Assembly (NCBI RefSeq): GCF_002161175.1
Contig: NZ_NFMA01000003.1
Location: 47,770-71,769, forward strand
DNA length: 24,000 nucleotides
Direction of reading: 5' to 3'
From: Flavonifractor sp. An100
GTDB lineage: Bacteria; Bacillota; Clostridia; Oscillospirales; Oscillospiraceae
The notes under the pieces were generated by a model that ran no database searches, had not been told where the DNA came from, and saw only the letters and a list, made by a program, of their open reading frames with translations. The translations under genes were made by a program, and so were the position numbers. Below, piece by piece: positions 1 to 14,503 of the stretch; positions within the stretch are counted from its first letter, which is position 1; each line of letters begins with the position of its first letter.

Positions 1-86
1 CGGGCATAATATGTAACCCGCAGGGAAAGGTCGTAGATAGACCTGCCCATCCGTAACTGTTCCCGCAGCTTTCTAATGGTCATCAT
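1..86 (-). CDS. Serine recombinase, N-terminal fragment (continues past the window start)
   Basis: The minus-strand ATGATG at 86..81 opens MMTIRKLREQLRMGRSIYDLSLRVTYYAR. The L-R-V-x-x-YAR ending is the typical start of the resolvase/large serine recombinase catalytic domain (YARVS). The start overlaps the stop of the upstream 64-aa gene (catGATGaccatTAG), indicating coupling. Only about 28 codons are visible. Confidence 0.5.
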   Translation of the reverse strand, partial: MMTIRKLREQLRMGRSIYDLSLRVTYYA

Positions 87-267
87 GCCGTTGATCCCCC
101 TTCTGCTCTTGTACTTGTAAAGGCTTATCTTCAGCATAATGGGTGAAATGCTTTCTGTCAAAAAACCGAGAATGACTGGCAGAATGATAAAGATCCTCTG
201 AGATAAAGTTCCGCTGCCACAGTCGCTTCAAAAGAACAAGCCCGATCTCACGGTCAATCTCATTCAT
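73..267 (-). CDS. Small ICE regulatory-module protein (64 aa), function unknown
   Basis: I trimmed the track ORF 73..345 to the internal ATG at 267, which is preceded by GAAGGAGG (275-282). The protein begins MNEIDREIGLVLLKRLWQRNFISEDLY. Its stop overlaps the recombinase start. Confidence 0.55.
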   Translation of the reverse strand: MNEIDREIGLVLLKRLWQRNFISEDLYHSASHSRFFDRKHFTHYAEDKPLQVQEQKGDQRHDDH

Positions 268-339
268 GCTCAAACCTCCTTCTCGGTAAGTTATGCCTTT
301 TGAACGGATACTATGATGTTCGGATTCAAAGCCACATGA

Positions 340-369
340 ACGCACTGGCAGCGTGTGCTGCCAGTGCGT
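340..369. repeat. Perfect 13-bp stem / 4-nt loop hairpin (ACGCACTGGCAGC gtgt GCTGCCAGTGCGT)
   Basis: The inverted repeat was read directly. It lies in the ORF-poor spacer between the sigma gene and the 64-aa gene and has no flanking U-tract on either strand. Confidence 0.6.
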
Positions 370-759
370 GGTATCTGACTTTGAATATGCCGGTCATATT
401 CATCGCCATATTTATCGAGCCCCTGGCGAAATGGGAACATGGCAGGTTGTCCGTGGCGAGGACGATTCATAACTCCACAGCGTCGGTCGTACCGTGCGCC
501 GTAGGGTTCCCCCGCTTACGTGGGAGGCCACCGTTCGGAAGTACCATTATGTCTGTGCTGCTCTCCTCCTGAATGAGCCATAAGCACCCAGGCGTATCGC
601 TTACAAATCGCTCACATCGGTGTGACCGATGGTCATGGCGGTAAACGAAAAATTGCATTGGCACAGTGACGTACCTGCTCATGCTGCCGATATTCCATTA
701 TCAAGGTTCACCGAGAAGTGAAAACCCCTCTATTAACAAGGACATCTGGAGGCGATTTT

Positions 760-1194
760 TTAAGTCTCTTTGAAAAGTTTTTCTAAAATTTTTTTTAGAT
801 TCTTTTTGCCAGCCTGGATGCTGTAATAAATCGCTTGTACGGAGGTGCCGTCCGCAGCGGCGATTTCTTCCAAGGTCATGTCCATAAAGTAATAGGCATA
901 GATCCGGTCTGCCTGTTTTCTGGGGATAGACCGCATAGCTTTGTAAAGTTCTTCGTTCTGGATATGCCGCATCGTTTCTTCTTCCGGCCCAGGTACTTGT
1001 TCTAAAATGTGAGCCTCCACTCCCGGTTCACTGTCCAGAGATACCACATCCCCGTTTCGGCTTCTCCGCTTCTCCAGGGCCTGGTCAGCAAGACGGCACT
1101 GCTCAAACATGGCGTCAATCTTGTAGGAAACAGGATATTCCGAGTATGTAGAATCCAGATGGGGGTATTCTTTTCTCAAATCAATAAATTTCAT
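760..1194 (-). CDS. Sigma-70 family (region 4 / ECF-like) transcription factor typical of conjugative elements
   Basis: 144 aa. The C-terminus RKQADRIYAYYFMDMTLEEIAAADGTSVQAIYYSIQAGKKNLKKIL is a sigma region-4 HTH. An AAGGAG SD lies upstream of the ATG at 1194. Confidence 0.75.
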   Translation of the reverse strand: MKFIDLRKEYPHLDSTYSEYPVSYKIDAMFEQCRLADQALEKRRSRNGDVVSLDSEPGVEAHILEQVPGPEEETMRHIQNEELYKAMRSIPRKQADRIYAYYFMDMTLEEIAAADGTSVQAIYYSIQAGKKNLKKILEKLFKET

Positions 1195-1305
1195 GTTGGC
1201 AACTCCTTTGAATTGTTTTTGAAGTATTCAAAGAAGTTGCTACGGGTACGCTGCTATGGAGGGATGCCAGTGCGCTGTAAACCAATCAAACTGCAAATAA
1301 AAAAA

Positions 1306-1349
1306 GGCATATCGAATCTCATCGTTTTTACGACAAAATTCGATATGCC
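1306..1349 (-). terminator. Hairpin (12-bp arms GGCATATCGAAT/ATTCGATATGCC, 20-nt loop) followed on the minus strand by TTTTTTTATTT
   Basis: The inverted repeat was read directly. The A-run at 1296-1305 on the plus strand gives the U-tract on the minus strand. Confidence 0.45.
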
Positions 1350-1393
1350 TAACACAAACGGATTCCCCGGGGCCGGGTATGTCAAATAACAAA

Positions 1394-1449
1394 AGAAAAG
1401 AGGATTTTCTTTTCCGTTTCAGCGGACGGTCTAGAAAATCCTCTTTTCT
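1394..1449 (-). terminator. Perfect 17-bp inverted repeat (AGAAAAGAGGATTTTCT ... AGAAAATCCTCTTTTCT, 22-nt spacer) followed on the minus strand by TTTGTTATTT
   Basis: The arms at 1394-1410 and 1433-1449 are exact reverse complements. An inner CCGT/ACGG pair extends the stem. It could alternatively be a protein-binding palindrome. Confidence 0.45.
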
Positions 1450-1632
1450 ATGCCACGGGTTATACAGTTGTTTTGATTCAAAAAGAATTGCGCACCGAGA
1501 TCACTCTTTCTATAAAACTTTTAATATATCATATAGTTGAAGTCGAAAGAATGATAACACAGTCGGAAGGTCGAAATTTGCTGACAAATGGAAAGAAAAC
1601 AGTGCTTTTACTGAAATTAGGTTTAATTCATA

Positions 1633-1661
1633 TTGCGTTTCCTACGTTCCCACGCTAAAAT
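1633..1661 (+). promoter_or_regulatory. Sigma-70 type promoter TTGCGT-17 nt-TAAAAT for the 1699 gene
   Basis: The -35 is at 1633-1638 and the -10 at 1656-1661, with exactly 17 nt between them. It sits about 40 nt upstream of the ATG at 1699. Confidence 0.45.
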
Positions 1662-1698
1662 GATGGCAGGCAGAACAACAGGAGGAGGTTTGAGCGAC

Positions 1699-2004
1699 AT
1701 GAAATATCTTCTGTACCGATCCCCTGGAAGCATAGAGAAGGATGTGACAAAACACGAACTGGTGGCTGTGGAATTTGGTACAGACATCTATGAAGTCACG
1801 GAGGCTCTGGTCGAAGCAGCGTCTCAAGATCTGGCTGGTATGCCGGAATACGAGGGGTGCCAGACTGCTGCCTATGCTCCAGAACTGTTAAAGCCGTTCC
1901 GCAAGGTCAAACGCTACGACTACGAGATGACGGGTATTGTCTATCCCGCACACGGGGATGAAAATATCTTGATTGACTATGGAATTGTAGAAAAAGCTGA
2001 ATAA
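1699..2004 (+). CDS. Small acidic hypothetical protein (101 aa)
   Basis: I trimmed the track ORF 1633..2004 to the ATG at 1699, which is preceded by AGGAGGAGG (1679-1688). By hand count it has 19 D/E versus 10 K/R. No recognisable motif. It is convergent with res. Confidence 0.55.
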   Translation: MKYLLYRSPGSIEKDVTKHELVAVEFGTDIYEVTEALVEAASQDLAGMPEYEGCQTAAYAPELLKPFRKVKRYDYEMTGIVYPAHGDENILIDYGIVEKAE

Positions 2005-2011
2005 AACACAA

Positions 2012-2046
2012 AAAGGGAAACCCGGATTCAGTCCAGGTTTCCCTTT
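2012..2046. terminator. Bidirectional rho-independent terminator between the convergent 1699..2004 gene and res
   Basis: AAAGGGAAACC (2012-2022) pairs with GGTTTCCCTTT (2036-2046). On the minus strand it is followed by TTTTGTGTTTTATT. Confidence 0.7.
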
Positions 2047-2069
2047 GCTCATTGTGTCATTAACTCTAT

Positions 2070-5000
2070 TTACAGCCGCTCACGCAGTTCTGTCCAGCTA
2101 GTGGCAGCCTCCAGCTCCACCCCAGCGTTCAAGGCTTTGAAATGCTCCTTGCCGCAGTGAATTTTCAGCTGCTCACTGGTTTTCAGGTGCATAAAGCTGG
2201 TGTCGCCCTTGGTTTCCAGGACAAAATACAGCTTTTCCTCACCATTCTTGTTGAGATACACAGCCCAGTCGGGGTTGTACGTGCCGATGGGGGTTTCAAT
2301 TTTGAATCGGCTGGGAATCTTGAAGAACATCTTCACATCCGGGTCGTTGTCCAAGGCCACGGCAACCGGCTTCTCCACCGTGGAGCTGTCGTAAACCACA
2401 TAGTCATAGACGCTGTGTTCCACCTTTACGGCGTTCCGATCCAGGTTAGCAAGCAACTCAGTGGTGTCGAAGATTTCCTGCACATAATATTCCTGGCCGT
2501 CCAGCTTCACATAGCGGATACCGTCGATAGCCAGGGCGTGGCGGTGGCTGCGGATCAGCTCTACGACTTGCTCCAGAAATGCCTCCGGGTTGTTGAGAAA
2601 GTCCTTGCACCGTCCACTCCCCACCAGAATCCGATTGATGGTGGCCGGGGTCAGCAGCGTTTCATCGCTGATGGCGGTAATAATGTCCGGCAGGGCCTGA
2701 TAGTCGTTGGCAATATCCATTGTCCGCATTTCCCGTTCTATGTGACTGATTCCAGCCTGTTCAATATGGATGTCGGCGGTCTGGGACACCAGTCGGGTTT
2801 TGGGGATATGGGGCATTTCCCGGATAACTTTGACGCAGTTCTCCACAAGCTGCTCGGTGTCAATGCTCACCCGATAAGCGGTTTTCTGCTTGATCTTGTT
2901 CCATAGCTCCAGGAACTCCGGGGAGAGCATGACTTGTTTGTTGAGCCGCACCACCACATCACGGGAAGCATCCCGCACCGGGGGCTTCCGGTCGGCATTG
3001 GCGATAATCTGCTCAAACCGCTCTCTGGCAGCTTCATATTTTTTCGGCAGGTCAAGGGTTCCGTTTTTCAGAGCGTTCTTCATGGTGTCCTTGACCTTGC
3101 CGGTGCTGGTGATATACCCCTTTTGCTCAAAATGTTGCAGCAGCTCGGTTGCTTCCTCGTGGGTGACAGTGTGTTCCTCCACCACGGTTTCCGTGTAGGT
3201 GGTTCCGGCCAGGGATTCCACCGCCACCGGCTGGGCCTTTTCTACGATTTCCTGTACCACTTCTTTGACAGGCTCCAGCGCCTTGGGCAGCTCGATTTCC
3301 CTGGGCTTGATTGCAGCGGCCACCTGACCAGCCTCATCAATCACACCAGCGGTTTTCAGGGCCGCTACTACCGCCTGGGCCTGTTCAGTCGTTACCTGCT
3401 TCTCTACGTCCCGACGGGCCTCATAGACCATGCCGGAAAACAAACTAAGCTGAAGCACACCAAACTTGACGCCGGTTTCGTCCTCGATCTCCTTTTGGAG
3501 GGTGGAGGCAAATTCGGCAAAGCTCTCGTTGGCCATAACGTGAAGGACGTTGATGTTCTTATCCTCGATACGCTCGCCGTCCTGGTTCACGCACAGGCGC
3601 AGGCCACGGCCCACCTTCTGACGGCAGGTAAAGGTGGACTTCTGCTCGATCAGAGTGCAAACCTGGAACACATTGGGGTTGTCCCAGCCTTCCCGCAGCG
3701 CCGAGTGGGAGAAAATAAACCGCAGCGGACACTCAAAGCTGAGAAGCCACTCCTTGTCCCGCATAATGGTGTTGTAGGTGTCATCGTCAGCTTGGGTGTC
3801 GCCTTTGGTATCCTTCAGACGGCCCTTCTTGTCCTGGGAGAAGTAGCCGTTATGCATCTTACTCACGTCTGTGGTAAACCGCTCCTGAAGGACGGCATAC
3901 TTGGGTTTCGCCATCAGCTCCTGGTAGCACTCCTCAAACATGGTGGCATAGATGCCGGGGGTGCCGTCCTCGTGGCGGTACTTGTCCACCTTGTCGATGA
4001 AGAACAGGGACAGTACCTTGATACCCTTGTCCAGATACCGCAGCTCTTTGTCCAGGTGGGTTTCGATGGTGCGCCGGATCTGCGCCTTCTTGACGATGTT
4101 CTCGTCTACATCGCCAATGGCCTTGCCCAGCTTGACCTCTTGGGTGTTGCCGAACTCGATATGCTCAAAGTCGGGGGTACAGTCGATTCCGGCGACGGTG
4201 TAGCCTTCATACAGTTCCCGTTGACCGGAGAGCAGGAACAAATCGTCTCCCGGCTTGACGGTCATGGCCTTTCGGGTCACGGCTCCGGTCTTGCCCTTCA
4301 CATCCAGTTCTACCCTGGCCTTAAAGCCCTTGTCGTTGCTGACAGAAAGCAGCCGCACATAGGCTTGGTTGAAGCCACCGGCAATCTGATTGGAGGACAC
4401 GGCGATCTGCTTCACCAGCCCCATCTGGTAGGCATCCACCGGAGTCAGGCGGTAAAGCAGATTGATTTTTTCTCGGTGGGTAGCGGAGTACCGCAACACA
4501 CACAGGGGGTTCAACGTGGCAATGGCTTCCTTGGCCTTGGGGGTGTTGTCTACACTCTGGGGTTCGTCGATGATGACGATAGGATGGGTATTCTGAATAA
4601 AGCCCATGGCCGTCTCGCCACCCAAACGATCTTGGGCCTGGTTGATAATGTTCTCCGCCTTCTTGAAAGCGTCGATGTTAATAATCATCACTTCGATGTT
4701 GGAGCTGGTGGCAAACTGCCGCACATCGGACAATTTGGCAGAGTTGTAGATGAAGTACCGGCACGGCACATTGTCATATTGCAGGCCGAAATGCTCCTGA
4801 GTGACTTGAAAGGACTTGTAGACGCCCTCCCGGATGGCCACCGACGGCACCACAATGACGAACTTGGTAAACCCGTACTTGCGGTTCAGCTCAAAGATGG
4901 TCTTGGTGTAAACATAGGTCTTGCCGGTGCCGGTTTCCATCTCGATACAGAACTGGCAGCGTGACGCTGCACCCAATGCGCCTTCGGCGGCGGGTTCCAA

Positions 5001-5228
5001 GTCAGTGAGTGGTAAACCATTCCGCTTCTGGACAGCGTGCATATTGGCGGTCAGTGTTTCCTGGTCGATGTAGAGGGCGTTGCCCTGGCCCAGTTCAGGG
5101 AGAAGGGAAGTCTGCCGATCATCCACCACGGAGAAGGTGCTTTTGGTTTTCTCCTGGCCAGTAAATAAGTCCACCACGGCGTTGACTGCGTCCGTTTGGA
5201 AGGCTTGATTTTTGAATTTAAGTTTCAT
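2070..5228 (-). CDS. res: Type III restriction endonuclease, Res subunit (SF2 helicase + C-terminal PD-(D/E)xK nuclease)
   Basis: 1052 aa. The N-terminus MKLKFKNQAFQTDAV is typical of Res. Motifs seen: Walker A METGTGKTYVY, motif II IVIIDEPQSV, motif VI QKVGRGLRL, and nuclease core YNPDWAVYL...LYFVLETKG. The SD AAGAGGTGA overlaps the upstream stop. Confidence 0.9.
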   Translation of the reverse strand: MKLKFKNQAFQTDAVNAVVDLFTGQEKTKSTFSVVDDRQTSLLPELGQGNALYIDQETLTANMHAVQKRNGLPLTDLEPAAEGALGAASRCQFCIEMETGTGKTYVYTKTIFELNRKYGFTKFVIVVPSVAIREGVYKSFQVTQEHFGLQYDNVPCRYFIYNSAKLSDVRQFATSSNIEVMIINIDAFKKAENIINQAQDRLGGETAMGFIQNTHPIVIIDEPQSVDNTPKAKEAIATLNPLCVLRYSATHREKINLLYRLTPVDAYQMGLVKQIAVSSNQIAGGFNQAYVRLLSVSNDKGFKARVELDVKGKTGAVTRKAMTVKPGDDLFLLSGQRELYEGYTVAGIDCTPDFEHIEFGNTQEVKLGKAIGDVDENIVKKAQIRRTIETHLDKELRYLDKGIKVLSLFFIDKVDKYRHEDGTPGIYATMFEECYQELMAKPKYAVLQERFTTDVSKMHNGYFSQDKKGRLKDTKGDTQADDDTYNTIMRDKEWLLSFECPLRFIFSHSALREGWDNPNVFQVCTLIEQKSTFTCRQKVGRGLRLCVNQDGERIEDKNINVLHVMANESFAEFASTLQKEIEDETGVKFGVLQLSLFSGMVYEARRDVEKQVTTEQAQAVVAALKTAGVIDEAGQVAAAIKPREIELPKALEPVKEVVQEIVEKAQPVAVESLAGTTYTETVVEEHTVTHEEATELLQHFEQKGYITSTGKVKDTMKNALKNGTLDLPKKYEAARERFEQIIANADRKPPVRDASRDVVVRLNKQVMLSPEFLELWNKIKQKTAYRVSIDTEQLVENCVKVIREMPHIPKTRLVSQTADIHIEQAGISHIEREMRTMDIANDYQALPDIITAISDETLLTPATINRILVGSGRCKDFLNNPEAFLEQVVELIRSHRHALAIDGIRYVKLDGQEYYVQEIFDTTELLANLDRNAVKVEHSVYDYVVYDSSTVEKPVAVALDNDPDVKMFFKIPSRFKIETPIGTYNPDWAVYLNKNGEEKLYFVLETKGDTSFMHLKTSEQLKIHCGKEHFKALNAGVELEAATSWTELRERL

Positions 5229-5234
5229 GCCTGT

Positions 5235-5753
5235 TCACCTCTTAAACAACCGCAGGAACAGGGTATAGTTCCATAAAAGATTATCTGCTTCAATGGAGTG
5301 CTGAATATTGATAATCTCATATTTGATTCCAACAATATTTTTACTGTCCATGTAGAGCTTGAGATTTTTATAGCTCTGCACAACATCAAGTTGATTTAGT
5401 ATTCCATTGTCAAGCACCTGATCTATTTTTGAAGTCAAGTTCCGATATATGTCTTGATTTCCTGTTTCACAATACAGGGCTGCTCGTTCGTAGGCGGTTT
5501 TTAGTGCTAATAGTGCATCTTTGCGTATGTCAATCTGCATTTTTCGCACACCAACAATAATTACTTCGTATATCGTAAAGCAAAAAGCAATCCGTTCAAT
5601 CCAAAGCCACAAAGTATTACCGCTGGAGATAGGGGAAAGGAATGTAGAAAGATAAGCAAGTAAGAATGGAATACCAATGTATTCGATTGTTCCAAGTAGG
5701 CAATGCACAGTGGTTTTTGTGATTACATGAAACCATTTTAGAGTGTTATTCAT
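5235..5753 (-). CDS. Uncharacterised membrane protein, 2 predicted N-terminal TM helices plus a helical C-terminal domain of about 100 aa
   Basis: 172 aa. Hydrophobic segments are VHCLLGTIEYIGIPFLLAYLSTFL and LWLWIERIAFCFTIYEVIIVGV. The ATG at 5753 is preceded by GAGGAAG, 7 nt after the mod stop. Its stop lies inside the res SD. It is AT-rich (line 5341-5400 is 21/60 GC by hand count). Confidence 0.6.
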   Translation of the reverse strand: MNNTLKWFHVITKTTVHCLLGTIEYIGIPFLLAYLSTFLSPISSGNTLWLWIERIAFCFTIYEVIIVGVRKMQIDIRKDALLALKTAYERAALYCETGNQDIYRNLTSKIDQVLDNGILNQLDVVQSYKNLKLYMDSKNIVGIKYEIINIQHSIEADNLLWNYTLFLRLFKR

Positions 5754-5760
5754 ATCTTCC

Positions 5761-7617
5761 TCACACCAGTTTCAGCTCAATTCCATGATCCCGCAGGATA
5801 TAGTAGGCATTTGCCATAGCGGTATCGTCGGCAAAGCTGTCACGGGAGATAATGATTTTAGCCGGAGCATATTCGGTCATTTGCTCCACGTCCTCCGGCT
5901 GCACATCTTCGGCCAGACAGACCAGCAGCAGGCAATCATCGCCCACGCCATAGACGGTCTTGTTGTGGATGGAGAACGGGGTCACGGAGTAGGTCAGCGG
6001 TACACCCAGCTTCAGCATGATTTCATAGATCATATCCAGGTCGGTACGCTCCGGCTTTACCCGGTGAATCATGGTATTCATTCGCTGGTACAGCAGGTCG
6101 AGCTGCTCGTCCTCAATGGGGGTAGCGTCCCAGGTTTTCAGATTGGAGGTGTCCAGCTTAAAGACACGGAAGCCCACGTCCAGGGGCTGCTTGTCCTCCT
6201 CCATAGTGACTTGGGCGTGTTCCTCCAGGATTTTCTTTCCGGCCCGCCGGATTCGCTCCTTGCCGATCTCGCAGATATTCTTGTACCCGGCCTTATGCGC
6301 CTCGCTCTTTTCGTCGCACAGCTCGGGAAGCTGCACCAGAATAAAGCGCCGGTTGCCGCCGTCCTCGGCATTGAGCTGCATCACCGCATGGGCGGTGGTA
6401 GCGGAGCCAGAGAAGAAGTCGAGAATAATGTCATCATTTGAAGTTGAAATCGCAAGACACCGCTGTATTAGTTCAACTGGTTTAGAAAAGTCAAATATCT
6501 TTCCGCCAAATAATTTTGTTAAGCCTTGCGCAGCAGATTGGGTATGACCAACCTCTGTGTTAGGCCACCATGTCCAAAGATTGCGTCCTGCTCTTTCCGA
6601 GAGATATGTTTTCTTTCTTGGAACACCCTTTCCATCTGCACCAAACCAGATTCGCCCAGCAGCTATTTCTTCGTTCATTTTATCCTGTGTATATCGCCAA
6701 CACAGGCTGTCAGGCAATTCGATAACCCGTCCAGCAGGTGTAACCATAGTATAAAATTGGTTTTTCGTTCCGTGACCAGCTTGTGCTGTGCAATCAGTCG
6801 AAATCCACGGCCCTCTGGGGTCGTTATCAGGATTTTTATAAGCTGCTTTGTCCTTTTCAGAAAATGGTAGCAGCTTTATAACTTGGTTACTATTCTGAAT
6901 GTTTTTTGTATAGACAAGGATGTATTCGTGCCCCGGGCTAATAACCCGTCGTGCATCTGGTGATGTACGTTTTTGCCATATAATCTGTGCTATAAAATTT
7001 TCCTCGCCAAACACTTCATCACAAACTTTTCGCAGGTTTGTGACCTCGTTATCATCAATCGAGATAAAAATCACACCATCATCCCGCAGCAGGTTTGCCG
7101 CCAGACGCAGACGGGGATACATCATGTTGAGCCAGTTGGTGTGAAAGCGGCCCATGGTTTCCGGGTTGCTCTTGGTGGTCTGCTGGGTCACTTCCTTGTA
7201 CCGGGCCATGGGATCGGCAAAATCATCGGCATAGACAAAATCGTTGCCGGTGTTGTACGGCGGGTCAATATAGAACATCTTCACCTTGCGGTAGTAGGCC
7301 GTTTGCAGCAGCTTCAAGACCTCCAGGTTGTCGCCCTCGATGTAGAGGTTCTGGGTGGTGTCCCAGTCCACGCTTTCCTCCTGGCAGGGGCGCAGGGTTC
7401 CGGTGGAACGCTTCTGGGCCAGCCGCAGGCAGTCCGCCTTGCCCTTCCACTCAAACTTGTACTTCTCAAAATCGTTGTCGATGTACTCGCCGCACAGAGA
7501 AAGCAGCTTGTCAATGTCCAGCTTGCCCTCGCTGACGCACTCCGGGAACACCGAGCGCAGCTTGTCCAGGTTGCTTTGTTCTATGTTCATGGAAAGTCCG
7601 TCAAGTATATCAGGCAT
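5761..7617 (-). CDS. mod: Type III DNA methyltransferase, Mod subunit (beta-class N6-adenine/N4-cytosine MTase)
   Basis: I trimmed the track ORF to the ATG at 7617, which has AGGAGG 9 nt upstream (7627-7632). Motif IV is FYIDPPYNTGNDF and motif I is ILDFFSGSATTAHAV, with a long variable region between them, as in Mod proteins. Confidence 0.9.
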   Translation of the reverse strand: MPDILDGLSMNIEQSNLDKLRSVFPECVSEGKLDIDKLLSLCGEYIDNDFEKYKFEWKGKADCLRLAQKRSTGTLRPCQEESVDWDTTQNLYIEGDNLEVLKLLQTAYYRKVKMFYIDPPYNTGNDFVYADDFADPMARYKEVTQQTTKSNPETMGRFHTNWLNMMYPRLRLAANLLRDDGVIFISIDDNEVTNLRKVCDEVFGEENFIAQIIWQKRTSPDARRVISPGHEYILVYTKNIQNSNQVIKLLPFSEKDKAAYKNPDNDPRGPWISTDCTAQAGHGTKNQFYTMVTPAGRVIELPDSLCWRYTQDKMNEEIAAGRIWFGADGKGVPRKKTYLSERAGRNLWTWWPNTEVGHTQSAAQGLTKLFGGKIFDFSKPVELIQRCLAISTSNDDIILDFFSGSATTAHAVMQLNAEDGGNRRFILVQLPELCDEKSEAHKAGYKNICEIGKERIRRAGKKILEEHAQVTMEEDKQPLDVGFRVFKLDTSNLKTWDATPIEDEQLDLLYQRMNTMIHRVKPERTDLDMIYEIMLKLGVPLTYSVTPFSIHNKTVYGVGDDCLLLVCLAEDVQPEDVEQMTEYAPAKIIISRDSFADDTAMANAYYILRDHGIELKLV

Positions 7618-8140
7618 CTTTTTGTACCTCCTGAGTTGTTGCTTTAGACACATTTAGATAGTCCGGGTGCTTATGGAGCAATTCAAATACCCACGGTTGA
7701 ATAAATCCTGGGGATAGCCCTCGTGGCGCAATGCTTGTTCCAGACGGCTGAGAAATAATTCCAAAAGTTTTGAGTTTTTGTGCCACCGGGTCCATCATTG
7801 AAAAGAGAATCGCTGTTTGTCCCTTGTCATAAAACTGTTTTAAATAGACTTTTTCTACATCTGAAAGATTCTTCAGAATGTATTTATATGTTCTCCATGT
7901 GTTGATTTTATTCCATTTCCGTTTGGTAAAACCAATAATGTATTTCATAATATAAGAAATGAGTAGCGAAGCAGATATTGCAAAAATAATAAAAAACCAT
8001 ATCCCATATTTTTCTCTAAATGCGATAATATCAAATGGCAGAAAGGTTGCAGGAAAGAAAAGCAAGAATATACTGGCAAAACAGATTGCAAAGGAGGCTC
8101 TAGCAGATGTATCTAAAACTTTTCCTATATCAAAATTCAT
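7610..8140 (-). CDS. SieB-like (superinfection exclusion protein B family) 2-TM membrane protein
   Basis: 176 aa. Two N-terminal TM helices are SFAICFASIFLLFFPATFL and GIWFFIIFAISASLLISYIMKYIIGF. These are followed by LKNLSDVEKVYLKQFYDKGQTAILFSMMDPVAQKLKTFGIISQ...FIQPWVFELLHKHPDYL. From memory, this pattern matches SieB-family proteins (LSxxEKxxLxxF...T..L...D..V..L...GII...qPW...L..nP). It is very AT-rich (line 7981-8040 is 15/60 GC). Confidence 0.5.
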   Translation of the reverse strand: MNFDIGKVLDTSARASFAICFASIFLLFFPATFLPFDIIAFREKYGIWFFIIFAISASLLISYIMKYIIGFTKRKWNKINTWRTYKYILKNLSDVEKVYLKQFYDKGQTAILFSMMDPVAQKLKTFGIISQPSGTSIAPRGLSPGFIQPWVFELLHKHPDYLNVSKATTQEVQKDA

Positions 8141-8143
8141 TTA

Positions 8144-10795
8144 TCACACCTCAACTTTAACCATAAATTCCCTCTGCACCTTTGCCGTCAGCTTTTCCTT
8201 GTCGGCAAAGGACTTTATTTTTTCTTCCAGCTCTACATCCAGGCGCATAGCGTCAAAGAACTGGCTCTCCTGCCGCTTCATGTATTCCTGCCGAAGCTGG
8301 GTTACTCTTTTCTGCGCAGACAGCCGTTTCAGCCGGTCGCCGGTGACGGCCTCCAGCTCCGCTTGGGCCTGCTGAACCTGGCTGTCTAGGGTGTTCAGCT
8401 CACGGCTCAATGCCGCCTTATCAGCGGACACCTGCTGCTTCATCCGTTCCATTGCCTCGGCCTGGGCGGGAGACAAACGCTCCAACTGCGCCTCCAGCAG
8501 CGCCTCCTTTGGCACCAAATTATCCAGCGGGTGGGGACGGCTGCTCCCTTTTAACCAGTGGGGAGATCTCCGCTCATCCTCGGTGTAATTCTCCACCGGC
8601 AGCTCCAGGATGCTGCGGCAAGCTGCATCGTCCAGGGCTTTGCCGCTCTCCGTTAGGCCACATAGTACGGCGTGTTCCGTGCGGCTGGAGCCTGATACCA
8701 GAGTCACGGTATAGAGGGCAATCTGGCACGGTTCCGGCGCTGTTGGAACAGTCAGCACTCCCTCATTGGCGCTCTCCAGCTCGTGGAGAATCCCACGGCC
8801 TATGATGCTGGACAGGGTAATCTGTCCGGCCTTGGGTTTGAAGTCCTTTGCCATGCCGTACATCTTCTGGCTGCGATAGGGCCGGTTTCTGCTCCCCGTC
8901 CAGTAGTAGAACAGCACCGGCAGCTCCCGGTACTTCGTGGCCGTAATGGTACGGCTGGCTTCGTCGATCACAAAATGGCAATCGTCGTTCTTTTCATTGT
9001 AACGGTTGAAGAACCATTTGGCAATCTCCCAAAGGTCGTTGTTCAGCTCCTGCCCACGGCGATTCACATACTTGGGGTTGATCTTCACTTTGTCGGCCAA
9101 CTCCTTGGTGAAGGTGGTAAACAGAATATCTTCCGCTGCGGAAACGGTCTGCCGGTTATCTTGCTCGTGGGTGTCCAGGGTCTGGCGGTATGCCTGCTCA
9201 ATCTGCGCCCTGGGCCGCAACCGCTGGGCAATGACCGGAAAGGCCGCTTTTACATCATCCGTAAAACCGCCCAGCACGTCATCGGTAATGCCAAAGACAC
9301 CGTCTGTCACCAGCATCCGCTTGTTGACCAGCTCCAGCTTGCGAACATCGGCAAAGTTGTTCTTGTCGATGAAGGCCACAGACAGCACATCGTTCTCCTG
9401 ACCCAGCCGGTGGCAGCGGTCGATACGCTGCTCCAGCTTTAAGGTGTTGTACGGCAAGTCGTAGTGGATGATGAAAGCAGCCTCCTCCAGATTGAAGCCC
9501 TTGGCACCGTTATCGGTGGAGATCAGCACCTCGCCGTCCTCTTTGAACCGGCGGATCACGGAGTAATCGGCGCTACCATTATAGGCCAAGGTGTAGTACT
9601 GCCCGGAAAGAAGATCCTGGAGCATCTTCTGGGTTTCCACGCTCTCGGTGAAGATAACGACTTTCCGTCCGGCTCCCGTTTTCTTCATCAGAGAAAAGCC
9701 CTGTTTGAGAACGGTCAGCAGCTCACCGGCCTTTGCATCCTGTGGGATGCTTTCTGCCACGGTCTGAATCTCTTGCCATTGGGTCAGCTCCTCCGCTGCG
9801 TTTTCCAACCCCTGGAGCCGCTTGACGATACCTTTGATGGTTTGCAAAATTGCCGCCGTAGAGGAACCCAGCAGGCCCAGCAGCCGTAGAGCCAGGTCAT
9901 ATTGGTTCATTTCGGGAAAGGCTCTCTTTTCCGGCTGGTTGATGTAGGCGTACAGCAGCTCATAGAGCTGCCGCTCTGCCTTGCCGGGGGTGTACTCCAC
10001 GGTCAACAGCACACGCTCCGTCACCTTGGCGTAGTGCTTGGCCTGGGAACGGAGGGTACGGAAACAATAGCGGCTGACCTGTTCGCTGAGTTCCGGGTAG
10101 TTCTCCGGTCGGCGCAGATACCGGGCCAGAAACTCTTTTTCTCCCGGCAGCAGCGTTTCGTCGATGAACCAGATCACGCCGTACAAGTCCATAATGTTCT
10201 TTTCGATGGGGGTGCCGGTCAGCAGCAGCTTGAAGGAGTCTCCGGCGATCCGCTTAAGGGCCTTGGCCTGTTTGTTGTCCTCTTGGTAGACCGGGGACAG
10301 GGCGTTGGCTTCTTCAAATACCGTCAAGTCCCAGTTGACCACCTTTGCGGCCTCCTCGTTGTCGGCGGCAAAGTCATAGGTCGTAATGACAATGGCATCC
10401 TGAATAAAGGCGTTGGGATGGTCGGGGGCACTGTAGGCCTGCCATTCTTTGCGGCTGGTCAGAACCACATAGGGAACGGTATAGAACCGATCCAGCATTT
10501 CCGTCCATTGGTACAGCAGGTCTGCATTGGGAATGACCAGCAGAATCCGGCTGCATCCCTCCAGCCACTTTTGATTGATGACCAGCATGGCCTCGTGGCT
10601 CTTGCCCATACCGGCTTCATCGCACAGGACAGCACCTTTCTGATAGGGGGAACGCAGGGCAAAGCTGGCCGCTGCGATCTGAAACGGATAGATTTCAATA
10701 TCCGATGAAGCAAAGACCGGGAGGAACTGTTCTTCCTCGGGTAGCTGCTCCAACAACCGAGCCTTGTAATAGGCATGAAATGGTGTTTGCAGCAT
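8144..10795 (-). CDS. SNF2-family (SF2) ATPase/helicase with a long C-terminal extension ending in a coiled coil
   Basis: 883 aa. Motif I is LCDEAGMGKSHEA. Motif II is the variant DLTVFEEANAL. Motif III is LLLTGTPIEKN and motif VI is QRIDRCHRLGQ. The last 110 aa or so are heptad-like and Q/E/K/R/L-rich. An AAGGAGGG SD lies upstream of the ATG at 10795. Confidence 0.85.
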   Translation of the reverse strand: MLQTPFHAYYKARLLEQLPEEEQFLPVFASSDIEIYPFQIAAASFALRSPYQKGAVLCDEAGMGKSHEAMLVINQKWLEGCSRILLVIPNADLLYQWTEMLDRFYTVPYVVLTSRKEWQAYSAPDHPNAFIQDAIVITTYDFAADNEEAAKVVNWDLTVFEEANALSPVYQEDNKQAKALKRIAGDSFKLLLTGTPIEKNIMDLYGVIWFIDETLLPGEKEFLARYLRRPENYPELSEQVSRYCFRTLRSQAKHYAKVTERVLLTVEYTPGKAERQLYELLYAYINQPEKRAFPEMNQYDLALRLLGLLGSSTAAILQTIKGIVKRLQGLENAAEELTQWQEIQTVAESIPQDAKAGELLTVLKQGFSLMKKTGAGRKVVIFTESVETQKMLQDLLSGQYYTLAYNGSADYSVIRRFKEDGEVLISTDNGAKGFNLEEAAFIIHYDLPYNTLKLEQRIDRCHRLGQENDVLSVAFIDKNNFADVRKLELVNKRMLVTDGVFGITDDVLGGFTDDVKAAFPVIAQRLRPRAQIEQAYRQTLDTHEQDNRQTVSAAEDILFTTFTKELADKVKINPKYVNRRGQELNNDLWEIAKWFFNRYNEKNDDCHFVIDEASRTITATKYRELPVLFYYWTGSRNRPYRSQKMYGMAKDFKPKAGQITLSSIIGRGILHELESANEGVLTVPTAPEPCQIALYTVTLVSGSSRTEHAVLCGLTESGKALDDAACRSILELPVENYTEDERRSPHWLKGSSRPHPLDNLVPKEALLEAQLERLSPAQAEAMERMKQQVSADKAALSRELNTLDSQVQQAQAELEAVTGDRLKRLSAQKRVTQLRQEYMKRQESQFFDAMRLDVELEEKIKSFADKEKLTAKVQREFMVKVEV

Positions 10796-10834
10796 GGTGG
10801 TTGCCCTCCTTTGCTCTCACACTCCTTTTTGTTT

Positions 10835-10863
10835 ATTATGTCAGATTTTAGGGGAAAAGGCAA
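10835..10863 (-). promoter_or_regulatory. Candidate promoter TTGCCT-17 nt-CATAAT for the SNF2-mod-res operon
   Basis: On the minus strand the -35 is at 10863..10858 and the -10 at 10840..10835, with a 17-nt spacer. It lies between the strong terminator at 10873-10915 and the SNF2 start. Confidence 0.4.
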
Positions 10864-10872
10864 TGTATGAAA

Positions 10873-10915
10873 CAGATAAACGGGAGCTGCTTATTGGGCA
10901 GCTCCCGTTTATCTG
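10873..10915 (-). terminator. Perfect 18-bp stem hairpin (CAGATAAACGGGAGCTGC ttattgg GCAGCTCCCGTTTATCTG) downstream of the TPR-nuclease gene
   Basis: The arms are exact reverse complements. On the minus strand the hairpin is followed by TTTCATACATTG (a moderate U-tract). Confidence 0.65.
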
Positions 10916-10964
10916 GGCGGAGATATTCAGTAAAGAACTATACGAAAATAGGGGCTTTTGAGTT

Positions 10965-12506
10965 TCAAATTTCAGTATAAGAAATGCTATACTCAAAAAG
11001 ACGCATTTGGGAATCCTGTTTGACTTTTCTTTTAAGTTCAGCAGTAGGGCTATTCAAACATATAAGGCCGTAAACGTGTTGTCCGGACTTCGCAATATCT
11101 GCTTCTACCCATTCAATATATGTTTTAGTTTGTGTGTACGCATCATCGTAACCGGAGTCTTTTTTTAGCTCAATCACATAAAGGTCGTTGTTATTATCTG
11201 TTGCCAAAATATCAAGTCTACCAGTACGAAGAATAAATTGTCTGCCGTACACGCCCCTTTTTTGATAGACCTTTAGTGAAAGACCAAAAACCGGAATGCC
11301 CTGTTCCATTCTCTGAATTAGTTCATCTTCAAGAAGTTTTTCACTGGTAAATTGATGCTTTTTTATTCCTATGTTAATCGTGGAAGTGTCTGCTGCACTA
11401 TCTTGTGAATCTGTATCCACATCACATTTTTTGGTTGCCAGGGGACGTCCAATTCTAGCAACGAGTTGTTTTGACACCTTATATCCACTTTTCTCAACAA
11501 ATTCTTTTGCCTTATCTTGCTGACCTAATGCCAAATAAGTACGAACGAGATTGTTTGCCGCAAAGCGTGTATCTCTTTTCTCCGATAAACATTTGCGAAA
11601 TACATCTTCAGCATCATGGTATTTCTTCTGCTTAAACAAACAATATCCCAGGTTATTCAAGGCGTTTTCTGCCTCTGGAAAAACTTCTAATGTTTTTCTG
11701 TAATATGCTTCTTCTAACTGATAGTTGCGCTTTTTTCCATAGCACCAAGCCATCCAAAAGTAAATATTGTCCGTATAGAATATGCCTACACGATCTTTTA
11801 CATCCTCATATTGTTCTAAATACGATAGAGCGTTGTTCCACATCTGCATATTATAATAGGTGTATCCCAATAGTTCTTTCGCCAAATATATATCTCTGTT
11901 GGTTTGCAACACTCGCAACAGTGCATCTGCAATATCTTCATTTTTTGTCCCGTAATAAACGCTTTCCAATGCCTCACACATTTCTGGAATACCTATACAT
12001 ACGCCGGGTCTATCGAGCAGTTCTCGCAAATAACTCCACATTCCAGGAATGCCTTCTTTTAGCGGTAAGACCAGACAATAAATAAAGTCTGAGCATGACA
12101 TTTCTTCATCTTCAGCCAAATAACGCTTTATCTTTGCAGGAACATACTGTGCGAGCCTTTCGTTAATTGCTCCAGATTTTCCGGTAAGTAAGTCAATTAC
12201 TGCAAAATATATTTGCTTGATGGGGTCACCGTCCGATAATCTTATAACAGAATTTCGGTATTCAATAAAGCAGGGATCTTTCATAACATCGCATTTCATT
12301 AGCTCTGAATATCTGAGATACCCCATTGTCAAGCTATCTAAAAGCAAGTCGCAGTATTTACTCTGCAATTCGTCATGAAATACAGGGGAGGCAGATATTA
12401 TAACATTTCGGCATTCTTGAAAATTAGGTTCCTTGGAAAAATCAAGTTGGTCATATGCTTGACAAAGCTTGTTTTGATAATGAATAAGTTCCTTTGATTC
12501 TGCCAT
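10965..12506 (-). CDS. TPR-repeat protein with a C-terminal PD-(D/E)xK nuclease domain (NucS/DUF91-like)
   Basis: 513 aa. TPR-like repeats span roughly aa 200-345 (e.g. AYYRKTLEVFPEAENALNNLGYCLFKQKKYHDAEDVFRKCL). The C-terminus GRLDILATDNNNDLYVIELKKD carries a D...ExK core (nt about 11163-11213), then YIEWV...VYGLICL. AGGAGG lies 8-9 nt upstream of the ATG at 12506. Confidence 0.7.
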   Translation of the reverse strand: MAESKELIHYQNKLCQAYDQLDFSKEPNFQECRNVIISASPVFHDELQSKYCDLLLDSLTMGYLRYSELMKCDVMKDPCFIEYRNSVIRLSDGDPIKQIYFAVIDLLTGKSGAINERLAQYVPAKIKRYLAEDEEMSCSDFIYCLVLPLKEGIPGMWSYLRELLDRPGVCIGIPEMCEALESVYYGTKNEDIADALLRVLQTNRDIYLAKELLGYTYYNMQMWNNALSYLEQYEDVKDRVGIFYTDNIYFWMAWCYGKKRNYQLEEAYYRKTLEVFPEAENALNNLGYCLFKQKKYHDAEDVFRKCLSEKRDTRFAANNLVRTYLALGQQDKAKEFVEKSGYKVSKQLVARIGRPLATKKCDVDTDSQDSAADTSTINIGIKKHQFTSEKLLEDELIQRMEQGIPVFGLSLKVYQKRGVYGRQFILRTGRLDILATDNNNDLYVIELKKDSGYDDAYTQTKTYIEWVEADIAKSGQHVYGLICLNSPTAELKRKVKQDSQMRLFEYSISYTEI

Positions 12507-12693: not shown

Positions 12694-13410
12694 TTAATCT
12701 TTTAATGAAACATATCCAAAATGATATTGAGAATCTGAGATCGTCTGTTTTAAGCTGCGCCCTGTGCTTGTTATTTTGAGCATTTCAGCAGTGATTTGGG
12801 TTTCATGACAAATATGTGAGAGTTTTAGCCAAATTCTTGCAAGTTCACCATGAAATTCAGCAGGGTAATTGGTGTTATCTGGGCAAGACACAGGAGTTTT
12901 TGCGGAAAAAATTTCTTCAACATTTGCTGAAAATGCGATGTCGTTATCATAGTGTTCATTGTTGATAGCAAAGAGAATCTTGACGCTTTTCCCGGATTTA
13001 ATCCTATCGTTATACCACTTCACTCTAGTGTCACTCATTCCGAAGAACAGTGATTGCGTGGAGAACCAAGTATATCCACGCTTAGCTTCATCTGAAATAT
13101 ATAACGCCATCGTTTCTTCACCATCTAAAGTAACTCCACTAGACGTAGAAAGCCCTAATTTCATAAAAATATAATCTGAACCATCCATCTGGATACTGTC
13201 TCGATCAGCAATCATAGCTTTCACTTCCTCCACATGAAGATATTTTTTCTTTAATCTCAGGTATAGCTCCTCGTCTTTAGCGAGCATATACATTTCTAAA
13301 ACATCATTGAGTGCGGCGGTTTTTGTCATTCCTTTTTCCGACACAAAGTCATTAAACATCTCTTGAACGGTGTCGGCCACTGTGATAGTCATGTAATTTT
13401 GCCTGCCCAT
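12694..13410 (-). CDS. Ribbon-helix-helix-like N-terminal domain fused to an uncharacterised C-terminal domain of about 170 aa (possibly a PUA-like/EVE-type fold)
   Basis: I trimmed the track ORF to the ATG at 13410, which is preceded by GGAGGGG (13416-13422). The N-terminus MTITVADTVQEMFNDFVSEKGMTKTAALNDVLEMYML has a strand-helix-helix pattern. The C-terminal domain assignment rests only on the pattern RIKSGKSVKILFAI...IAFSANVEEIF...ARIWLKL...ITAEMLK, which is weak. Confidence 0.5.
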   Translation of the reverse strand: MGRQNYMTITVADTVQEMFNDFVSEKGMTKTAALNDVLEMYMLAKDEELYLRLKKKYLHVEEVKAMIADRDSIQMDGSDYIFMKLGLSTSSGVTLDGEETMALYISDEAKRGYTWFSTQSLFFGMSDTRVKWYNDRIKSGKSVKILFAINNEHYDNDIAFSANVEEIFSAKTPVSCPDNTNYPAEFHGELARIWLKLSHICHETQITAEMLKITSTGRSLKQTISDSQYHFGYVSLKD

Positions 13411-13425
13411 TAAATCCCCTCCATT

Positions 13426-13468
13426 GTGTACCATATAGCCGGTAGAGTTTCTTCTAAAGTGTACCATA
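13426..13468 (-). promoter_or_regulatory. Two direct 10-nt repeats GTGTACCATA (13426-13435, 13459-13468), 33 nt apart: a putative operator pair
   Basis: The repeats were read directly. One overlaps the -10 of the TTGACA-17-TACACT promoter. The other lies in the leader next to the SD of the RHH-fusion gene. Confidence 0.4.
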
Positions 13469-14041: not shown

Positions 14042-14503
14042 TCATATCTTTATAAGATGAACTTCTTTGCCAAGCGTATGTGCACAGCGCATGGTAAATA
14101 GAGTCCCGCCGTGATCACGCCCATCATAGACAGCAATTACCCGCTGTGACTGGTGTACCATATAGCGATTTCGTTGCATGAAACAGGATGGAACATACTT
14201 TTCGCATTCTACCTTGACGCCATTGCAGGCCTGCAGCAGCTCGTGGAACTGCTGATTTTGGGTTTTCAACCTCCCGGCATGAGGAATAGCCGCTTCCAAA
14301 AACAACTCCGGATGCTGTGCTTTTTCTTCAGCCACGATAGAGGCAAACATTAGGTCAATTCCTTCAGCAAAGCCGGATATAAACCGAGTATAGCCATCCT
14401 CAATCGCTGATAAAATTTCACACCTAAGTTCTTTCTCCACATAAGTAATGCGATCTGCGGAAATTTCTCTGTGTCCAGTCACACAACAAGTTTTTTCATT
14501 CAC
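14042..14503 (-). CDS. SLOG-superfamily DUF1273 (YpsA/YoqJ-like) protein
   Basis: 153 aa with a GTG start at 14503 and GGGAGG 7 nt upstream. It carries the signature CVTGHRE near the N-terminus and FISGFAEGIDLMFASIV, as in DUF1273 proteins of Firmicutes phages and mobile elements. Confidence 0.65.
   Translation of the reverse strand: MNEKTCCVTGHREISADRITYVEKELRCEILSAIEDGYTRFISGFAEGIDLMFASIVAEEKAQHPELFLEAAIPHAGRLKTQNQQFHELLQACNGVKVECEKYVPSCFMQRNRYMVHQSQRVIAVYDGRDHGGTLFTMRCAHTLGKEVHLIKI

Follow-up and report, generated by a model that had tools for sequence, protein, structure and literature searches.

An SNF2-led type III restriction–modification operon with two candidate cargo slots on a conjugative element of Flavonifractor sp. 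An100

Five adjacent minus-strand genes in a 24,000-nucleotide stretch of Flavonifractor sp. An100 (contig NZ_NFMA01000003.1, positions 47,770 to 71,769; hereafter the window) encode, in order, an SNF2-family ATPase, a SieB-family membrane protein, the type III methyltransferase Mod, an orphan protein that we call TM2, and the type III restriction subunit Res. With a probability of roughly 65%, we read this locus as a type III restriction–modification (R-M) operon carried by an integrative conjugative element and belonging to an apparently unnamed lineage in which an SNF2 gene comes first, the two small genes being embedded, exchangeable cargo. The gap between the SNF2 gene and mod is referred to as slot 1, and that between mod and res as slot 2. 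The small genes are best viewed as exchangeable cargo because the slots are swapped in near-identical backbones and because both families also occur outside restriction loci. An earlier note, made from the letters of this DNA alone, had proposed a composite defence coupling restriction or foreign-DNA sensing to membrane-acting effectors. That proposal was partly right: the SNF2–Mod–Res unit stands, but the small genes do not hold up as fixed subunits of it.

The type III pair and its SNF2 partner

Profile searches with Pfam and PADLOC bore out the family assignments made in the earlier note for the SNF2, SieB, Mod and Res proteins. Mod matched PF01555 (N6_N4_Mtase; 133 bits) and, over its full length, the PADLOC model MTase_III (730 bits). 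The catalytic (D/N)PP(Y/F) motif expected of a type III Mod is present as DPPY at residues 118–121, together with an S-adenosylmethionine-binding motif (FSGSATT, at about residues 402–408); Mod thus carries the motifs of beta-class adenine/N4 methyltransferases, joined to a private recognition domain. Res matched Pfam ResIII and RE_endonuc and, again at full length, PADLOC REase_III (1022 bits). Its Walker A motif GTGKT lies at residue 100, DEPQ at 221, SAT at 248 and motif VI at 537, and a PD-(D/E)xK endonuclease forms the C terminus, which gives the superfamily 2 (SF2) ATPase–nuclease fusion, encoded beside mod, that is expected of a type III Res. The succession on one strand of a Mod with DPPY and such a Res is that of EcoP15I, EcoP1I and StyLTI. 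Type III enzymes hemimethylate an asymmetric site, and their ATP-dependent cleavage requires two inversely oriented unmethylated sites. The operon differs from these systems in that a conserved SNF2 gene leads it, extra genes separate the subunits, the lineage resides mainly on mobile elements, and Res falls below the cut-off of the NCBIfam type III endonuclease equivalog NF012027 (370 bits, cut-off 564).

The SNF2 protein (Pfam SNF2-rel_dom plus Helicase_C) has the DrmD model PDLC02619 as its best PADLOC match (308 bits). It consists of a DrmD-like N-terminal motor followed by a C-terminal region of about 360 aa, of unknown fold, with a coiled-coil-like tail at its end. Motifs I, III and VI are intact, and motif II (residues 158–164) reads FEEAN in place of DEAH. 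The same FEEAN is found in Monoglobus and in two of the comparison loci (L023 and L029; such loci are given L numbers); L005 and every proteobacterial homologue have DEAH.

The likeness to DrmD bears on the analogy with DISARM class 1 drawn in the earlier note. As in DISARM class 1 and ARMADA, where the motor is DrmD or ArmA, an SNF2 ATPase stands beside a DNA adenine/N4-type methyltransferase in a defence operon. However, the window operon has no DrmA/YprA-type helicase, DUF1998 protein or phospholipase D-type (PLD) nuclease; its nuclease partner is a type III Res, and its methyltransferase is of the PF01555 and not of the PglX/DrmMI type. When the five proteins and 12 further window open reading frames (ORFs) were run against PADLOC, no DrmB or DrmC was found, and DrmA appeared only as a weak cross-match of the SNF2 helicase domain. 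In NCBIfam, the SNF2 protein scored 304.6 bits against DISARM_DrmD_b (cut-off 950) and 119 bits against DISARM_DrmD (cut-off 610). DISARM membership was consequently rejected, as the required partners are absent and the DrmD equivalog cut-off is missed widely, and the analogy fails beyond the pairing of motor and methylase. We also rejected membership in Hma, for which the only match was a partial one of HmaA to the C-lobe of the SNF2 helicase (1e-30) while Mod and Res matched type III models only, and in BREX, whose required partner genes are absent.

Relatives of the SNF2 protein are numerous, with more than 1100 clusters at 90% identity, two of which, from gut Clostridia, contain 1548 and 722 members. 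About ten lineages from four bacterial classes share the order SNF2–Mod–Res on one strand; it is very abundant in gut Clostridia and is also found in Alpha-, Beta- and Gammaproteobacteria, including Klebsiella plasmids. In Escherichia coli STEC309 the genes HTH (helix-turn-helix), SNF2, GmrSD (DUF262 + DUF1524), Mod and Res occupy the chromosomal hotspot yicC/dinD (L040, 11053–21206), an SNF2 gene of this type being detected at the DNA level in only 2 of 5,426 complete E. coli genomes. A megablast search of the same 5,426 genomes with the window operon gave no match, and a scan of viral contigs with the SNF2 protein revealed no relatives. We take this recurrence to mean that the SNF2 gene is a real partner of mod and res and not a chance neighbour, in line with the dedicated SNF2 motor postulated before.

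A different view would place the SNF2 gene in the DNA-processing or anti-restriction set of the conjugative element, where it merely abuts an ordinary mod–res pair. Tn5252-type elements of Firmicutes do carry conserved SNF2-helicase genes near their transfer genes (PMC5704250), and some SieB–Mod–Res loci have no SNF2 gene, with a Schlafen/AlbA-type ATPase or small HTH genes upstream instead. Yet the triad is present on plasmids, on mobilizable elements and in the yicC/dinD hotspot without shared transfer genes, the conserved block begins at the promoter before the SNF2 gene, and only 3 nt separate the SNF2 stop from the next start. As the same triad resides in unrelated element types, we rejected the SNF2 gene as a backbone gene of the conjugative element and consider this view very improbable.

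A conserved frame with exchangeable modules

As read from the sequence, the five genes are one tightly coupled operon with one conserved candidate promoter, one terminator and coupled starts (Table 1). The spacings between consecutive ORFs are +3, −8, +7 and +6 nt, and direct reading of the letters confirmed both the near-zero spacing and each of the junctions reported earlier. The SNF2 stop TGA (8146–8144), immediately preceded by GAGGTG (8152–8147), is followed by a TAA and by the ATG of the SieB-like gene (8140–8138). The stop of that gene (7612–7610) overlaps the ATG of mod (7617–7615) as ATGCCTGA, with AGGAGG 10 nt upstream. Although the longest mod ORF begins at 7653, the start at 7617 is preferred because it has a ribosome-binding site and homologue alignments begin there. 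The mod stop (5763–5761) and the TM2 ATG (5753–5751) are 7 nt apart; the TM2 stop (5237–5235) lies inside AAGAGGTGA, within the Shine–Dalgarno sequence of res, whose ATG begins six bases on, at 5228.

Promoter- and terminator-like sites were counted in comparison with shuffled sequence. Promoter-like matches in the region were not above chance (8 observed versus 7.4 expected), and the scan by itself proves little. There is nevertheless good evidence that the promoter candidate at 10863–10835 belongs to the operon unit, since relatives in other element contexts share homology with it from exactly 10863 onwards, with both hexamers preserved. The terminator (2046–2012) lies between res and a convergent plus-strand ORF (1633–2004) and is common to both. 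Other terminator-like matches on the minus strand were weak and their number was at chance level, in keeping with the previously noted lack of internal hairpins. Taken together, these data support a single operon whose layout is unlike that of a textbook two-gene type III system. The remainder of the window encodes a Firmicutes-type conjugation apparatus (VirD4 coupling protein, PrgI, VirB4-like ATPase and NlpC/P60 hydrolase) and other cargo, and the operon is therefore cargo of an integrative conjugative element.

Table 1. Features of the SNF2-led operon (window coordinates).
Feature	Position	Strand	Basis
Operon promoter candidate (−35 TTGCCT, 17-nt spacer, extended −10 TG-CATAAT)	10835..10863	-	Consensus scan, conservation
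SNF2-family ATPase, 883 aa	8144..10795	-	Pfam, PADLOC, NCBIfam, motifs
SieB-family membrane protein, 176 aa, slot 1	7610..8140	-	Pfam PF14163, PHROG 6399, hydropathy, alignment, AlphaFold2 (AF2)
Type III Mod methyltransferase, 618 aa	5761..7617	-	Pfam N6_N4_Mtase, PADLOC MTase_III, motifs
Mod variable target-recognition segment	6436..6991	-	blastn mosaic versus L012, L014, L023, L029, L043
TM2, orphan all-helical protein, 172 aa, slot 2	5235..5753	-	No library match; AF2 model
Type III Res subunit, 1052 aa	2070..5228	-	Pfam ResIII + RE_endonuc, PADLOC REase_III, motifs
Intrinsic terminator, 15-bp stem and T-tail	2012..2046	-	Terminator scan, sequence

Comparison by blastn with the commonest gut form (L023, L043) resolved the operon into a mosaic. 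Nucleotide identity was about 89–93% over the SNF2 gene (10863–8160), the N-terminal core of Mod (7610–6992), its C-terminal core (6435–5761) and Res (5230–2077), and there was no homology over the SieB-like gene, the Mod recognition segment (about 6991–6436) or the TM2 gene. The mosaic breaks at start and stop codons, and no shared recombination sites were seen when the slot boundaries were inspected. In addition, the G+C content of the slot genes is about 44%, some 10 points below the roughly 55% of the SNF2 gene and res. The gene-exact mosaic and the lower G+C of the slot genes thus mark the operon as a conserved frame with three exchangeable modules, namely slot 1, the recognition domain and slot 2.

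The contents of the slots vary accordingly among relatives. In every readable context, the close relatives of the SNF2 gene show the order SNF2–x–Mod–y–Res on mobilizable elements that encode a relaxase and a serine recombinase, x being a 218-aa single-pass or a 253-aa two-pass membrane protein and y a 259-aa Cys-rich protein. In loci that have the SieB-like gene of the window, a 183-aa protein or a 305-aa RES-domain protein takes the place of TM2. Searches of the 183-, 218-, 253- and 259-aa proteins against Pfam (E up to 1) and, at stricter limits, PADLOC and PHROGs returned nothing meaningful. Further afield, slot 1 is occupied by RhuM in Monoglobus, by a complete GmrSD in the E. coli hotspot, by an Abi-family gene (Abi_2) on Salmonella plasmids and by an AAA ATPase plus DUF4276 in Aeromonas, and slot 2 by a DUF262 protein in Rhizobium; in Cupriavidus both slots are empty. 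A metagenomic lineage with 40% SNF2 identity (L005) has an SNF2–SieB–Mod–Res operon in which the stretch separating mod from res (6445–11929) contains a complete Hachiman system (HamA and the helicase HamB), DUF6978 and DUF1828/1829 genes and a 128-aa ORF. Overall, the SNF2 gene and mod lie between 39 and 3503 bp apart, and mod and res between 48 and 5534 bp.

The 259-aa protein is the commonest occupant of slot 2 (L023, 15275–16054; L024–L032 and L041–L044). Its N terminus bears a Cys cluster, CKTCEFNFDGVCAGHG, and it matches no family; it shows 96–100% identity among operons in which the SNF2 genes diverge by as much as 19%.

These findings largely speak against co-variation of the two small genes with the rest as parts of a composite machine, given that they are swapped in backbones of about 89–93% identity, that both slots can be empty and that their families also live elsewhere. 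Examination of gene neighbourhoods, which the earlier note had suggested, therefore gave a divided answer: the SNF2–Mod–Res order is conserved, but both small genes are replaced by unrelated genes in close relatives. The pattern is that of embedded defence genes ("guilt-by-embedding"), described in Hma, BREX, DISARM and type I systems (bioRxiv 10.1101/2024.01.29.577857), for which PrrC inside the type I locus EcoprrI is the classic precedent, also as a back-up (PMC12707154). As in those cases, unrelated genes are nested on the same strand in a modification-based system, their occupancy varies among close relatives, and the same families are encountered outside the host system, here in L015 and L022 for the SieB-like family and in L002, L004 and L045 for TM2. 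In contrast to those cases, the host is an SNF2-associated type III system, which judging by its text the survey does not cover, and there are two discrete slots with gene-exact boundaries.

The slot genes could also serve the mobile element, by timing the onset of restriction after transfer or by stabilising the operon in the manner of addiction or maintenance modules. In nearly all cases the operon does reside on conjugative or mobilizable elements; the proteobacterial versions have a small HTH gene upstream, as is found with controller proteins, and the 259-aa slot-2 protein combines its Cys-rich N terminus with an HTH-like segment recognized by eye. However, the great majority of slot contents that could be identified are known anti-phage genes (GmrSD, Abi, Hachiman, RES, RhuM), the SieB family is one of exclusion proteins, and family library scans gave neither the SieB-like protein nor TM2 a DNA-binding or antitoxin signature. 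We consider such a service role improbable.

The two small proteins and the case for an integrated system

The SieB-like protein matched Pfam PF14163 with 75.2 bits, well above the curated 26-bit cut-off, over model positions 3–147 of 147, and also matched PHROG 6399 "SieB" (4.9e-5). With its nearly full model coverage and small membrane-anchored architecture it resembles the SieB proteins of lambda and P22; unlike them, it is encoded not by a prophage but within a restriction operon that a conjugative element of Clostridia carries. Hydropathy supports a solid N-terminal two-helix membrane hairpin (Kyte–Doolittle 19-residue maxima of about 2.2), and the family alignment shows an invariant GFIQPWVF motif in the cytoplasmic alpha/beta domain that follows. 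The AF2 model has a pLDDT of 82; Foldseek found no significant match to it in the PDB, the only matches being winged-helix ones with E ≥ 0.1. These weak matches, to residues of about 94–160 in the cytoplasmic domain, were consistently of winged-helix type (MarR family, eS10, ORC WH).

The family is rare, with 20 clusters at 90% identity. A tblastn search with the SieB-like protein gave no match among plasmids and a single weak, partial one (E = 4e-4) among phage records, and a viral contig scan with the SieB alignment found no relatives. In more than ten loci the gene directly precedes mod, often with the same 8-nt overlap, while identity of the SieB-like protein falls from 76% to 43%. Outside restriction loci it is solitary among housekeeping genes in L022, and in L015 (Anaerocolumna jejuensis, 10728–12071) it is followed by a gene for a TIR-domain protein fused to a ParA/MinD-type ATPase, with no methyltransferase. 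In the known SieB phenotype, lytic growth of a superinfecting phage is aborted, and self-protection is provided by an in-frame internal product (Esc). An abortive, membrane-acting role would be the natural guess for the SieB-like protein, because the P22 protein brings macromolecular synthesis to a halt partway through superinfection (PMC10883804).

TM2 is predicted to begin with two long helices of moderate hydrophobicity and to end in a helical bundle, and its AF2 model is confidently all-helical (pLDDT 83). The claim that both small proteins have two transmembrane helices is solid for the SieB-like protein and only borderline for TM2, whose hydropathy maxima are 1.45–1.59 and whose hydrophobic helix contains the invariant charges E53, R54 and E63. 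Searches of Pfam (E up to 1), and of PADLOC, PHROGs and NCBIfam at stricter limits, returned nothing meaningful, Foldseek against PDB and BFVD nothing below E = 0.4, and a viral contig scan with the TM2 alignment no relatives. This family is also rare (30 clusters at 90% identity; 128 representatives at 50% among 1.8 billion), and its members lie in the Mod–Res gap three times independently, namely in the window, in L001 and in L047. Elsewhere it follows a type I HsdR in L004 and has no restriction genes nearby in L002 and L045. The L004 locus (2–5888) reads, in order, type I HsdR (EcoR124_C), the TM2 homologue, a DUF4268 protein and a 906-aa SF1 helicase. By profile–profile comparison, the SieB-like family, the TM2 family and the 218-aa protein are mutually unrelated, and overall the three slot-1 families show kinship neither to one another nor to TM2.

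Several observations weigh against passive cargo in an EcoP15I-like system. The persistent SieB–Mod pair hints at a link more specific than hitch-hiking, as does the fact that Clostridial slot 1 holds three unrelated families that are all membrane-anchored. The presence of TM2 in three Mod–Res gaps and beside a type I R subunit points to an affinity for restriction loci. Res and SNF2 both fall below NCBI equivalog cut-offs, which places them on a divergent branch whose mechanism may differ from that of EcoP15I. The FEEAN motif II of this clade leaves the ATPase status of the SNF2 protein uncertain, and its chemistry may differ. Finally, the sample of relatives is limited and biased toward gut metagenomes.

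The first three of these points could be explained if the membrane proteins were functional partners of SNF2–Mod–Res, the SieB-like protein either tethering the enzyme at the membrane where foreign DNA enters or acting as a guarded effector like PrrC, silenced by the complex and set free to damage the membrane once restriction is blocked. The SieB–Mod adjacency, with its start/stop overlap, is kept whether or not an SNF2 gene is present, the modelled cytoplasmic domain has its weak winged-helix-like matches, and PrrC itself is a precedent. On the other hand, the fold matches are not significant, the cassettes are swapped in backbones of about 90% identity, both small families occur outside restriction loci, and slots are either empty, as in Cupriavidus, or hold soluble, known stand-alone defences in other proteobacteria. 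An integrated composite of this kind therefore seems unlikely to us, and a guard or tether model, kept alive by the SieB–Mod pairing and the three membrane-anchored slot-1 families, no more likely. In its most specific form, which is somewhat less likely still, SNF2–Mod–Res would anchor or silence the slot-1 membrane protein (the SieB-like one, or its analogues with one or two transmembrane helices in sister operons) and, once an incoming phage or plasmid blocks restriction, release it to act on the membrane as an abortive effector. The hallmark of PrrC is its control by the host enzyme: the restriction complex keeps the effector inactive until an anti-restriction factor sets it off.

Returning to embedded cargo as the preferred explanation, Mod and Res would work as EcoP15I does, with Mod methylating one strand of an asymmetric site and Res–Mod complexes cutting unmethylated DNA on which they meet. 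The SNF2 ATPase would be an accessory motor of the type III enzyme that loads it, clears its path, remodels it on incoming DNA or widens its sensing. The SieB-family protein and TM2 would use the transcription of the operon and travel with it, and each would counter phages separately, by abortive infection or exclusion, either independently of restriction or as a back-up for when restriction has failed, after the manner of PrrC in EcoprrI.

Neighbouring genes and implications of the backbone

Other candidate defence genes are found upstream in the window, on the same strand. A 513-aa protein (10965–12506) with tetratricopeptide (TPR) repeats and a C-terminal NucS_C/HSDR_N-like nuclease domain matches the PADLOC candidate PDC-S02; its gene has its own terminator hairpin (10880–10935), just upstream of the SNF2 promoter, and a 98% identical copy of the protein is encoded at the same position in L016. 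A 153-aa SLOG/YpsA/DprA-like protein (14042–14503) shows weak similarity to ShosA of Shosta (6e-8), and two ORFs away lies the gene for a 257-aa protein without a family (12694–13467). These two genes may form another small defence or toxin pair in the cargo region of the element.

Type III restriction, SNF2-plus-methylase modules (DISARM, ARMADA) and embedding are already known. Our literature search found no account of an SNF2–Mod–Res type III lineage, of two bounded slots, or of a SieB-family gene in a restriction operon. If a guarded pair did exist here, it would be the first abortive infection coupled to a type III system and would place a SieB-family protein in a mechanistic setting for the first time; TM2 would then add a second effector family, itself new, that tends to associate with restriction loci. 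If the slot genes are embedded cargo, as we favour, the principle of embedded defence would extend to type III restriction systems. In either case, the analysis identifies an abundant, cross-phylum SNF2–Mod–Res backbone, particularly frequent in Clostridia of the human gut, with two precisely bounded cargo slots, which may serve as a source of candidate anti-phage genes, among them the SieB-like gene, the 172-aa TM2 family and the 218-, 253-, 259- and 183-aa proteins. The presence of a conserved SNF2 partner prompts the question of what a second motor adds to a type III enzyme, and the cassette variants on near-identical backbones offer a natural experiment for telling whether embedded genes work independently or together with the system that hosts them.

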